Source of the DNA: an uncultured Clostridia bacterium
GTDB taxonomy: Bacteria > Bacillota > Clostridia > Christensenellales > Borkfalkiaceae
DNA: 28,923 nucleotides
Assembly: GCA_946627905.1 (NCBI GenBank)
Contig: CAMOVY010000001.1
Location: 1-28,923, forward strand
Reading direction: 5' to 3'
Position numbers and translations under genes: made by a program. Below the pieces are notes generated by a model. It ran no database searches, had not been told where the DNA came from, and was given only the letters and a program-made list of their open reading frames with translations. Positions 1 through 19,792 of this stretch are shown here, one piece after another (position 1 is the stretch's first letter; every line of letters starts with the position of its first letter).

Positions 1-216
1 TAACCTGTCCCGCTGAAAGACCATCGACACTTTTTCCGCGCCCGTTATTTCCCCGTCGAAACAGGTAAGGCGCGCTATCATATTTAAAAGCGTGGTTTTA
101 CCCGAACCGTTTTCCCCTAAAATGACCGTTATGGCGTTTTCTTCGATATCGAGATTAAAATTTTCAAACACGGTTTTATCGCCGTATCTTTTGGTTATGT
201 TTTTAAGGCTTATCAT
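1..216 (-). CDS. ABC transporter ATP-binding protein, NitT/TauT type (5' part; runs off the window)
   Basis: Not in the ORF track. Manual translation from ATG at 216 gives MISLKNITKRYGDKTVFENFNLDIEENAITVILGENGSGKTTLL, with Walker A GENGSGKT. The ATG overlaps the permease stop (ATGA). Confidence 0.9.
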   Translation of the reverse strand, partial: MISLKNITKRYGDKTVFENFNLDIEENAITVILGENGSGKTTLLNMIARLTCFDGEITGAEKVSMVFQRDRL

Positions 217-1004
217 TTTTTCACCGCCTTTTTAGCCCAAAGCCCGAACGCCCACTCTATAATAAGCCCCGTGATTACGGTTATAATCACTAAAGCGAGC
301 ATTGTGGGGTACTCGTAATAGGTTTTCGAATTCTTAAGCAAAAACCCCATAGAGTGCGCCGTCTGCGCAAGCACTTCGGCGGCGACCATAAGTTTAAGGT
401 TAAGGGTAAGCCCCGCCCCAGCCGCGGAAATAAATTCGGGCGCGATTTGCGGAAACACTACTTTTTTCAGCCGTTCCGCATTGTTGACGCCAAAAACTTT
501 GCACATTTCGTTAAGTTCTGTGTCTATCCCGCAAAGGGCGGCGTAAAGGTTGTTGTAAAGGGTGGGAAAAACCACGAGCATAGTAATTATAACGGGCGCT
601 ACTTCGGAATTCGTGAATAAAACCAGCCAAAGCACCACCGCTATAGTCGGAAGCGCGCGGATAATCACTATCAAAGGCGTTAGCGCCCGCCTTGCCTTTT
701 CCGACTTATACGCGGAAAACGCGACAATATAAGCAAGCGAAAAAGAAACCGCGCACGCTAAAACGCTGCGTAAAAGCGTACTGCAAAATGCACGGTAAAA
801 AACCGCGCTGTCATACGCCCCTGCGCCGATAAACAACTTTACCGTCTCGGCAAAAGTATCGCTGACCGACGGTAAATAGTCTTTGTCGACGATTTTTGCC
901 GACGCCGCCCATAAAAGCAATATAGCGGAAACGGTAATTAACGGCAGAGATATATTTAAAACCTTGTTCTGGGTTTTGATTTTTTTATTATTTAGAGATT
1001 TCAA
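213..1004 (-). CDS. ABC transporter permease, NitT/TauT (SsuC/TauC-like)
   Basis: Multiple TM segments; RALPTIAVV and EAA-like loop (ELNEMCKVFG); lies between the binding protein and the ATPase. Confidence 0.88.
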   Translation of the reverse strand: MKSLNNKKIKTQNKVLNISLPLITVSAILLLWAASAKIVDKDYLPSVSDTFAETVKLFIGAGAYDSAVFYRAFCSTLLRSVLACAVSFSLAYIVAFSAYKSEKARRALTPLIVIIRALPTIAVVLWLVLFTNSEVAPVIITMLVVFPTLYNNLYAALCGIDTELNEMCKVFGVNNAERLKKVVFPQIAPEFISAAGAGLTLNLKLMVAAEVLAQTAHSMGFLLKNSKTYYEYPTMLALVIITVITGLIIEWAFGLWAKKAVKK

Positions 1005-1995
1005 ATTTATAACCTATTTTATTTAAAACCGCCCTGAAAGTAAGGTCGGGCACGCCACCCATATTGAAAACCCCTATCGTTTTATCTTTCAGACCGTCGA
1101 CCGTAATTTCTTCGGAACACATAAGATAAAGATTACCGTGCGTTAAAACGGAAACGAGTTTATACGGGTCGGCGGTATTTTTCTTATAAAGTTTGCTCGC
1201 CGCGTTTACGGGCAGAATAACTATATCGCCCGTACCTTTAATAACTATCTCTCCGATATTTTCCGCTTTCACTACGTTATACTCGAAAGTCTTATCCGTG
1301 CCGAACGTTTCGTTTTCATTTATAAATTTTGCGATTGCAAGGGCGGGTGCACCGTCGGGCGCGTAAACTTTTACGGTATCTTCGGTAAAATCACCCGTCG
1401 CCGTGCCGTCGTAGAACAAGTCGTCGGCAGCGGGATTTGCCGATAACTTTTCAATATCTATTATGGTGTTAAGATAATTTTTGACCGCGCTTGCGGCTTC
1501 CTGCGCGCCTTGCCACCTTATATTGCAATTTACCACCGCGTTTGACGTAAGCGCGGCGGGTTTTAACGACGGCGTCGCGCCTTCCGGAAGAACGGAATTA
1601 ACCGCAGTCGCCGCTTGCGCCGGATTTGCAGTCGCCCACTCTACGTTTTCGGCAAACTTGTCCGCAATAGAATTTACGAGCGTTGCGTTAGTATTTAAAA
1701 GGCTTTCCTTTACGAGCATAACGGCTTGCGGATAAGATTTTGTTTCCGCATCGTAAAGTTCCTGAATATCCAGCCTATACCAGATTTTCGTACCTTTCGT
1801 CGTATTTTCAAGCGTTGTGGCGGCAGGTTCTGCTAAAATACCGTAAGCAATTTCGCCCGATTTTAACGCGGGCATAAGTTCCGACGCGTCTGCGTAATAT
1901 TTAAGGCTTATTTCTGCACTGTTCCCACACGCGGAAAAGGCGAAGACGGTTAGCGCAGACACTATGCTTAAAATAAGTGCAATAAGTTTTTTCAT
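988..1995 (-). CDS. ABC transporter substrate-binding lipoprotein, NitT/TauT family, circularly permuted
   Basis: Start reassigned to MKKLIALILS (ATG at 1995, GGAG RBS upstream). Lipobox FSA-C. Family motifs APDGAPAL, DIVILPVNAASKLY, GILAEP, YPQAV and DDLFY are present, but the two halves are in swapped order. Confidence 0.85.
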   Translation of the reverse strand: MKKLIALILSIVSALTVFAFSACGNSAEISLKYYADASELMPALKSGEIAYGILAEPAATTLENTTKGTKIWYRLDIQELYDAETKSYPQAVMLVKESLLNTNATLVNSIADKFAENVEWATANPAQAATAVNSVLPEGATPSLKPAALTSNAVVNCNIRWQGAQEAASAVKNYLNTIIDIEKLSANPAADDLFYDGTATGDFTEDTVKVYAPDGAPALAIAKFINENETFGTDKTFEYNVVKAENIGEIVIKGTGDIVILPVNAASKLYKKNTADPYKLVSVLTHGNLYLMCSEEITVDGLKDKTIGVFNMGGVPDLTFRAVLNKIGYKFEISK

Positions 1996-18778: not shown

Positions 18779-18849
<71 letters not shown>

Positions 18850-18852
<3 letters not shown>

Positions 18853-18888
18853 TCTGATAAACCGAAAATAATTCGGTTTATCAGATGG
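18850..18888. repeat. 17-bp perfect inverted repeat starting at the tRNA-Gly CCA
   Basis: CCATCTGATAAACCGAA-AATAA-TTCGGTTTATCAGATGG; no U tract follows. Confidence 0.85.
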
Positions 18889-18973
18889 GGCGAGTATTTG
18901 CGGAGAGAACATAAATTCTGTCGTTGTTTTTAGAAAATGCCGCTTAAAACAAGACGTATCAAGAAGGGTGTAT

Positions 18974-19050
18974 GCACCTGTAGCTCAGTTGGATAGAGCA
19001 CCGGCCTTCTAAGCCGGGTGTCAGGGGTTCGAATCCCTTCAGGCGCACCA
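18974..19050 (+). tRNA. tRNA-Arg(TCT)
   Basis: Anticodon arm CCGGC-CTTCTAA-GCCGG, GGTTCGAATCC, CCA; A3-C70 mismatch. Confidence 0.93.
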
Positions 19051-19054
19051 TTAT

Positions 19055-19132
19055 GGCGGGCGTAGCTCAGTTGGTTAGAGCGCAAGATTGTGGTCCTTGA
19101 GGTCGTGGGTTCGATTCCCATCACCCGCCCCA
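19055..19132 (+). tRNA. tRNA-His(GTG), including encoded G-1
   Basis: Loop TTGTGGT, C73 discriminator, G-1; C6-A67 and A31-C39 mismatches. Confidence 0.9.
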
Positions 19133-19401
19133 AATATAAAACGAGCGTTGCTCGTTTTGGATTTGGGTGGGTACTTGCGGAGAGAACACAGGGACGGTCG
19201 TCATTTGACGGACTACCCTGACGGTACGAGACCATCGTAGCAAACTTTGTTTGCGGAGATGCTTCCCACGTCTATATCAACCTTAAATCAAAGCGCGTTT
19301 TCGGTTTTGATTTTTGGGCAGGGTACTTGCGGAGAGAACACAGGTTTCGCGCGGCAAGACAGCGACGAGGTGCGGAAAACAAAAAATCCGACCCTTTAAA
19401 T

Positions 19402-19477
19402 AGGGGTGTAGCCAAGTGGTTAAGGCACCGGATTTTGATTCCGGCACTCGTAGGTTCAAATCCTGCCACCCCTGCCA
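19402..19477 (+). tRNA. tRNA-Gln(TTG)
   Basis: AGGGGTG/CACCCCT acceptor, CCGGA-TTTTGAT-TCCGG, CCA. Confidence 0.93.
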
Positions 19478-19493
19478 AGAACAAATATTTTAC

Positions 19494-19569
19494 GGCCCAT
19501 TAGCTCAGTTGGTAGAGCACGTGACTTTTAATCACGGTGTCCGGGGTTCGAATCCCCGATGGACCACCA
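19494..19569 (+). tRNA. tRNA-Lys(TTT)
   Basis: CGTGA-CTTTTAA-TCACG, GGTTCGAATCC, CCA; C3-A70 mismatch. Confidence 0.93.
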
Positions 19570-19716
19570 CGTCAGAGCAAGGCTTTTTATAAGCCGTTCG
19601 CACAGGGCGCAAACGGCATTATTTTTCAGCCTGCTCTTCCTTTTCCCAAAAATCTTTTGCAAAGCAAAATATTTTCGGGAGCCCTGATTTTTACAAGCGG
19701 AAACGCTTGCTAAATT

Positions 19717-19792
19717 GTTCCATTAGCTCAGTTGGTAGAGCACCTGACTCTTAATCAGGGTGTCCAGGGTTCGAGTCCCTGATGGAGCACCA
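19717..19792 (+). tRNA. tRNA-Lys(CTT)
   Basis: CCTGA-CTCTTAA-TCAGG, GGTTCGAGTCC, CCA. Confidence 0.94.

Follow-up and report, generated by a model that had tools for sequence, protein, structure and literature searches.

Does the gene that precedes an ABC permease gene near one end of this contig encode a substrate-binding lipoprotein whose halves have changed places, and, if so, how could such an order have arisen and persisted? The gene lies in a 28,923-nucleotide stretch of DNA from an uncultured Clostridia bacterium (hereafter the window, meaning the whole stretch that was analysed), and its product is P0001. We found that P0001 is circularly permuted: after the signal peptide, the chain starts at about position 165 of the family's canonical order, runs to the former C-terminus, is joined there by a linker to the former N-terminus, and stops near canonical position 160.

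Gene setting and order of the chain

The operon is arranged as binding protein, permease, and ATPase (Table 1), and the company of a BPD_transp_1 permease and an ABC ATPase was confirmed. Permease and ATPase genes also follow the binding-protein gene in all related loci examined. The 5' neighbours of the operon are spoIIID, an acyltransferase gene, and a pfkB kinase gene. The gene for P0001 is single copy in a 981-kb, 75%-complete genome bin, a MAG of 126 contigs. Related records are uncultured Christensenellaceae and Clostridia MAGs from ruminant and human guts, and the public runs containing the window's DNA mostly carry sheep or goat gut metagenome labels, with no RNA runs listed among them. 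The window also contains a cluster of six tRNA genes at 18779–19789 (Rfam RF00005, 61–70 bits).

Table 1. Features of the binding-protein operon and its upstream region, in window coordinates.
Feature	Position	Strand	Remarks
Permuted substrate-binding lipoprotein P0001, complete CDS	988–1995	minus	ATG at 1995, stop 988–990, 335 aa
Signal peptide with lipobox, codons 1–24	1924–1995	minus	Cys23 at 1927–1929
First block, residues 28–196	1408–1914	minus	canonical ~167–332; later lobe II part and C-terminal helices
Linker DGTATGDFTEDT, 12 residues, 196–207	1375–1410	minus	joins former C-terminus to former N-terminus
Second block, residues 208–335	991–1374	minus	canonical ~29–160; begins VKVYAPDGAPAL
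ABC permease (BPD_transp_1), same operon	213–1004	minus	permease start overlaps end of binding-protein gene
ABC ATPase, N-terminal 72 aa only	1–216	minus	truncated by contig end
Promoter-like site (2190–2162) and leader with intrinsic terminator (2064–2042)	2033–2190	minus	upstream of operon

By inspection of the sequence, without a dedicated predictor, the signal peptide of P0001 consists of MKK, a hydrophobic core, and FSAC ending in Cys23, a cysteine that is invariant in 87 homologues. It is identical at 24 out of 24 residues to the signal peptides of two canonical homologues (P0083 and the protein of locus L079) and differs from those of other lipoproteins in the same genome.

After the signal peptide, the chain continues with the family's C-terminal part, a 12-residue linker, and the family's N-terminal part, so that the canonical N-to-C order of the NMT1/SsuA-like family is absent. 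BLASTP against the canonical relative P0059 (335 aa) returned two crossed alignments, one matching query residues 207–335 to subject residues 35–163 (63% identity, E 4e-57) and the other matching residues 28–194 to 169–333 (50% identity, E 2e-51); the signal peptides match too. Alignment to PDB entry 3hn0 was crossed as well (residues 204–326 to chain positions 2–118, residues 35–182 to 130–265, E 3.6e-07). A canonical HMM, built from 27 canonical homologues, mapped residues 27–194 of P0001 to canonical 167–332 and residues 202–333 to canonical 29–160. Since each part was mapped exactly once, P0001 carries no duplicated segment. Within the first block, an ISLKYY strand stands at the start and DDLFY at the end, while the second opens with strand 1, which bears the PDGAPA motif, and runs past the VPDLTF helix to the new C-terminus, which follows a short KFEI strand.

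These results bear on a sequence-only reading of the locus, which had claimed swapped halves in one intact open reading frame with a normal signal peptide, no duplication, and a linker at about 1375–1410. All of these claims held, given the 335-aa frame, the crossed alignments, the HMM mapping of each part once, and the position of the linker at residues 196–207. The same reading had described the canonical family as having the PDGAPA half first and the DDFF tail last, and this order was found in real canonical homologues. Two crossed high-scoring pairs, with no single collinear alignment, support a natural circular permutation, and so does the coverage of the junction by other assemblies. A Logan contig from one public run (X1) spans 900–2018 with 12 differences, and a contig from a second run (X2), belonging to a separate study, spans 1042–1691 with 3 differences. 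Because independent contigs from two studies bridge the linker without a break, misassembly at the linker junction is ruled out.

Family, predicted fold and likely function

P0001 is similar over both lobes to NMT1/SsuA-like NitT/TauT binding proteins (COG0715; PF13379, PF09084), but it reached none of the curated family cut-offs among the Pfam and NCBIfam models. Its sole Pfam match was weak and to an unrelated family (DUF6414, E 0.016, 15.4 bits against a cut-off of 25). The SsuA family model TIGR01728 scored 21.6 bits against a cut-off of 163.5 and aligned residues 38–137 to profile positions 140–232, out of register. The canonical relative P0059, in comparison, passes PF13379, and we interpret the missed cut-offs as a consequence of altered order, not of decay. 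The motifs PDGAPA, NAA, THGN, VPD, EPA, and YPQA are conserved in permuted and canonical forms alike. By family assignment, P0001 is shown to be the substrate-binding component of an ABC importer, intact and lipid-anchored, while the binding and delivery of a ligand are inferred from sequence. As the presumed binding-site motifs are conserved in both forms, we argue that ligand chemistry is unchanged, and we infer, without binding data, that P0001 binds the same class of ligand as its canonical relatives, the ligand itself being unidentified.

Structure models were consistent with a circular shift of one fold. The AF2 models of P0001 and P0059, each with a pLDDT of 94, contain the same ~25 secondary-structure elements in circularly shifted order: canonical E169 to H303–320 correspond to permuted E28 to H164–181, and canonical E35 to E159 correspond to permuted E207 to E330. 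The canonical model matched 3hn0 over its full length (E 1e-19, TM 0.71/0.85), followed by PqqT, TauA, SsuA, ThiY, Thi5, and MqnD, whereas the permuted model gave only weak matches with order-dependent aligners (E 2e-5, TM about 0.3, Z up to 7.5), including a Z of 7.3 over 163 residues against 3hn0. A permutation should produce exactly such a contrast. The weak generic matches of the permuted model in the PDB Foldseek, VIA-wide, and AFDB searches were likewise to be expected, and we reject them as a sign of a new fold. We infer that P0001 adopts the same two-lobe type II alpha/beta fold; this is a prediction by model, compared by order-dependent aligners only. Separately, three ESM Atlas clusters of Methanobacteriota proteins annotated as NMT1_2 were collinear with the permuted model (TM 0.71–0.72, ~295 residues). 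Archaeal relatives with the same permuted order are possible, on the basis of structural alignment only.

The permuted order of elements means that the lipid anchor attaches at a different strand. From known type II topology, the cut is inferred to fall inside lobe II, after the VPDLTF helix and before the strand that follows it, and the anchor would therefore shift from lobe I to lobe II. The earlier claim that the anchor had moved to another part of the fold thus held as to the strand, while the other lobe is an inference from the known type II fold. Its companion claim of changed ligand access or permease docking remains a suggestion, and the conserved binding-site motifs point to the same ligand chemistry. 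The tether between the cysteine and the first strand is ~5 residues long in the window's subclade, with medians of 9 residues in permuted forms and 12 in canonical forms. A single permease gene adjoins the binding-protein gene, from which a homodimeric membrane part can be inferred as a possibility. If the permease is a homodimer, the two lobes would have equivalent subunits as docking partners, and little would be lost by the swap.

The leader upstream of the operon is conserved in loci of both topologies within the same genus (L002, L005, and L014). We considered a riboswitch as a clue to the ligand, and in that search no Rfam family reached its gathering score in the window or in 20 related loci. 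A PyrR-binding site (RF00515) scored 32.1 bits on the leader, below the gathering score of 54, and the sub-threshold hit recurs upstream in four same-genus loci. This hit is the genome's second best, after the site before pyrR, and the genome encodes PyrR. We did not find the identity of a PyrR attenuator convincing, as the score is below threshold and the operon's leader does not clearly resemble the one in front of pyrR in the same genome; a pyrimidine ligand is possible, as a weak lead. Additionally, the contig from run X1, which is 99% identical across the gene, has 8 bases at 2018–2027 upstream of the start replaced by 128 others, which we interpret as variation between strains in the leader or the ribosome-binding region.

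Topologies across the family and at single loci

The window's order, which we term P1, occurs in at least 130 homologues. Of the 120 closest, 93 were P1 (45%–75% identity) and 27 were canonical. A wider survey, in which 1.84 billion representatives were searched and 268 proteins were then mapped by HMM, found two more permutations, P2 with a cut near canonical position 207 and P3 with a cut near 121. Both were confirmed by crossed BLAST alignments, P2 with P0172 against canonical P0248 (71% and 63% identity) and P3 with P0221 against canonical P0206 (51% and 68% identity). In a distant branch of the family, we also found tandem double proteins, P0187 (611 aa) and P0269 (613 aa), which are 78% identical to each other. 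The two units of P0187 are 70% identical, and both proteins are encoded ahead of a permease gene in an ABC operon. The tandem doubles indicate that this family contains the first step of a duplication–truncation route in a stable form. No protein with one and a half copies was among the 268 that were mapped, a set made up of the best 120–150 hits per search and limited by length.

Some irregular forms were also seen. One protein in canonical order (P0213, 444 aa) has an unexplained N-terminal extension of 150 residues. Split binding-protein genes were seen at L105 2367–3172, with ORFs covering canonical 5–172 and 283–333, and at L115 1158–2204, with ORFs covering canonical 2–138 and 180–333. 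The split ORFs in these two MAGs could be pseudogenes, deletions, or assembly errors.

Trees were built from all sequences after re-ordering into canonical order. In the 283-row tree, permuted and canonical forms interleave, with P1 requiring no fewer than 33 changes, of which well-supported branches impose 21, and P2 and P3 requiring 5 each. An IQ-TREE analysis (LG+C20) of 84 rows, which were picked partly for sister pairs, agreed, and a single P1 clade was rejected by the AU test (dlnL 1358, p 3e-38). Sister pairs have lineage-specific loops and tails in common. We note that patch-wise gene conversion between alleles could conceivably mimic this sister relation of permuted and canonical genes. 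With regard to phylogenetic spread, the permuted form is common, probably has several origins, and occurs alongside the canonical form at a single locus, none of which the sequence-only reading had foreseen.

Across a host-family sample of 121 genomes, 102 had a hit, and each of these had a single locus with the exception of one MAG, G114. Reading of the match table gave ~14 P1 genomes and 2 P2 genomes, the rest having canonical or one-half matches only, and five genera appeared by the same reading to contain both permuted and canonical forms, in different species. In the window's genus, both topologies are located directly behind spoIIID. No second copy of the binding-protein gene was found within 3 kb in the 80 loci examined. 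The G114 MAG has two loci, L031 (G114:C70) and L015 (G114:C106), one of which is a canonical operon. In the second operon, the B half ends the binding protein before the permease gene, as it does in permuted forms, and this binding-protein gene is truncated where the contig stops. At 77%–81% DNA identity, the two operons may represent true paralogues or a mixed bin.

Comparison within the window's clade suggests that the two topologies are old alleles. The nearest genome by flanking sequence (locus L079) has spoIIID at 96% identity, pfkB at 92%, and an identical signal peptide, yet its gene is canonical, with a mature part only 51% identical to that of the window. A 2,492-bp alignment to L079 at 86% identity stops at 1924, the last base of codon 24. 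Within the gene, there were only weak crossed matches, in which the halves were 62%–65% identical. Because the 86% identity ends exactly where the signal peptide does, we interpret the mature part as an old divergent cassette at one locus. On the other side, the first ~500 bases of the permease gene (compared over window 213–961) are 59%–70% identical in nucleotides and share the excess divergence of the cassette; similarity resumes inside the permease gene, and ~90% DNA identity is regained in the ATPase gene. Downstream, the divergent segment thus fades out gradually, in contrast to its sharp border at the signal peptide. Identity was 65% between the clade's P1 proteins (window and L042), 66%–78% between canonical proteins, and 48%–54% in mixed pairs. 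Similarity in the clade thus follows topology, not flanks, which points to old alleles rather than a new local event. The flanks, including the signal peptide, are inferred to have been homogenised or retained around the cassette.

A different pattern was seen in genus g15, where a P1 locus (L004) can be compared with a canonical locus (L024). The binding proteins and the permeases of this pair are each 75% identical, and in DNA the halves are 76%–78% identical and the flanks 72%–82%, evenly along the length. The junctions are still readable. The P1 linker contains the canonical tail through its last sense codon, with TCT replacing the TAA stop, followed by ~7 new codons; it closes with the final codons of the canonical N-linker. 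At its N-terminus, the P1 protein retains a lineage-specific loop (NNTPDAK versus NQTPAADK), and its C-terminus lies three residues past the YE of that same loop. With binding-protein genes as alike as the flanking DNA and with legible junctions, it looks as though topology switched in place within this genus, an inference drawn from sequence. There were no relics of a lost half 3' of the canonical g15 stop codons, as in-frame translation enters the permease directly, and we dismissed read-through matches past these stops as chance extensions. The closest pair of mixed topology is only 75% identical, so no recent event has been caught.

Origin of the permuted forms and comparison with known systems

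As the simplest account of these data, we consider it likely that permutation occurred repeatedly by tandem duplication and truncation, and that the resulting topologies persist and are exchanged through recombination in the flanks; the route is inferred, not shown. In this scenario, the mature region would be duplicated in tandem and in frame, and the first and last half-copies would then be lost. The first deletion must be internal, since the signal peptide has to be retained. Such events would have recurred several times in the family, at three permissive loops, and each topology, once made, would persist as a divergent cassette. Related species could then swap cassettes by recombination in conserved flanks, with the signal peptide and leader upstream and the permease and ATPase downstream, and the window would be the carrier of one such old permuted cassette. 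A search for DNA repeats where the signal peptide meets the first block, at the linker, and at the stop gave short chance matches only. Site-specific recombination or cassette shuffling is for this reason unsupported.

The main rival is a single origin for each type, followed by long coexistence as alleles or paralogues, with gene conversion homogenising the halves. Under this explanation, the interleaved tree reflects homogenisation rather than repeated rearrangement. In its favour, the two forms in the window's clade behave as long-standing allele classes of a single locus and have sharp borders, the G114 MAG has a canonical operon together with a second operon resembling the permuted form, and allele conversion would require merely incoming DNA from another strain. 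However, G114 is the only one of ~100 family genomes with a hit to have two loci, and the 80 loci examined had no second copy nearby. The window's clade has not been homogenised despite flanks that are 86% identical, and the g15 pair would need homogenisation that was complete and even, including the junction loops and tail. A separate assumption would also be needed for each of P1, P2, and P3, as each is scattered on the tree. We regard this rival as unlikely.

Less plausible still is that the permuted protein no longer serves a transporter. The gene might be in decay, or its product might have taken on a different role as a surface lipoprotein, for example as a phage or immune target under diversifying selection. 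This view would fit the divergence of the mature region, which in the window's lineage far exceeds that of the flanks, as well as the very short tether and the fact that no curated family model was met at its cut-off. Against it, the open frame is kept in more than 130 homologues with conserved binding-site motifs, permease and ATPase genes always follow, the fold prediction is confident, and the family models fail through changed order, as the result for P0059 indicates. We judge this second rival very unlikely. Finally, an artefact of assembly or binning can be all but excluded as the source of the swapped order, because, although the MAG is fragmented, the junction is bridged by contigs from two separate studies and the same order is encoded in dozens of independent assemblies.

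Returning to repeated permutation, a bolder version is that this family, in gut Christensenellaceae-like Clostridia, is a natural hot-spot for circular permutation. Three loops would have been re-cut repeatedly, probably via tandem doubles that are still extant, and the topologies would be allelic cassettes, retained and swapped at a single locus, with the signal-peptide cleavage site as boundary. The balance of the evidence leans, by a small margin, towards this view. If it is true, the hot-spot would provide a living series for the duplication–truncation model as well as an example of a surface receptor that is polymorphic in structure.

The usual view of natural circular permutations is that they are rare, ancient, and single events, known by inference from distant structures. 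In the present family, permuted proteins are 50%–75% identical to their canonical partners and share the same operon and the same locus with them, and the DNA of the junctions is still legible. With three cut points, a tandem form, and readable junctions, pairs of natural proteins allow a direct test of the duplication–truncation route and of how well a two-lobe receptor tolerates re-cutting. There are also practical consequences. Pfam and NCBIfam models and order-dependent structure searches miss permuted proteins, and in the source databases most of the permuted proteins found here carried neither a Pfam annotation nor an informative name. Biosensors based on binding proteins might accept new termini or insertions at the sites that the natural cut points mark.

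In the literature that we searched, coverage of which was incomplete, there was no report of a permuted NMT1/SsuA-like binding protein, nor any account of close homologues cut at several different points or of topologies that are alleles of a single locus. What appears to be new here is permutation in the NMT1/SsuA-like group, as natural permuted binding proteins are already known elsewhere. The closest solved relative by sequence is BDI_1369 of Parabacteroides distasonis (PDB 3hn0), an NMT1/SsuA-like protein with unknown ligand, whose order is canonical and to which P0001 aligns in two crossed pieces. The type II NitT/TauT proteins SsuA, TauA, ThiY, PqqT, and Thi5/NMT1 have the fold family in common with P0001, as judged from the canonical model, and the same operon type, but all of them are collinear, unlike P0001.

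Permuted binding proteins have been described in other groups. TpMglB-2 (Tp0684) of Treponema pallidum, proposed as 'Type Ic', is a natural permuted, lipid-anchored ABC binding protein that binds ligand, and its authors raise a link to tethering (PMC4990184). It is a type I (cluster B) sugar binder with ~13% identity to its E. coli counterpart in the permuted part and with one topology (PMC4990184), whereas the family of P0001 has a type II fold, partners that are 50%–75% identical, and three cut points in addition to a tandem form. Closer in fold are the circular-permutation relations that CPSARST detected among OpuAC, ProX (glycine-betaine binding), ModA, and CysB (PMC2395249). Order-dependent structural alignment of the permuted model ranked OpuAC first (Z 7.5), and the permutation concerns the same type II fold. 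Those relations, however, are deep, with less than 24% identity, and are visible in structure only (PMC2395249), while in the family of P0001 the permutation is visible in sequence and in the DNA of the junctions. Duplication followed by truncation is the classical model of permutation (discussed in PMC13552848). Unlike the series expected under that model, no one-and-a-half-copy forms were found among the mapped proteins of this family, but the predicted first step, a tandem double, is present, and the linker is made from the old tail and the old N-linker.
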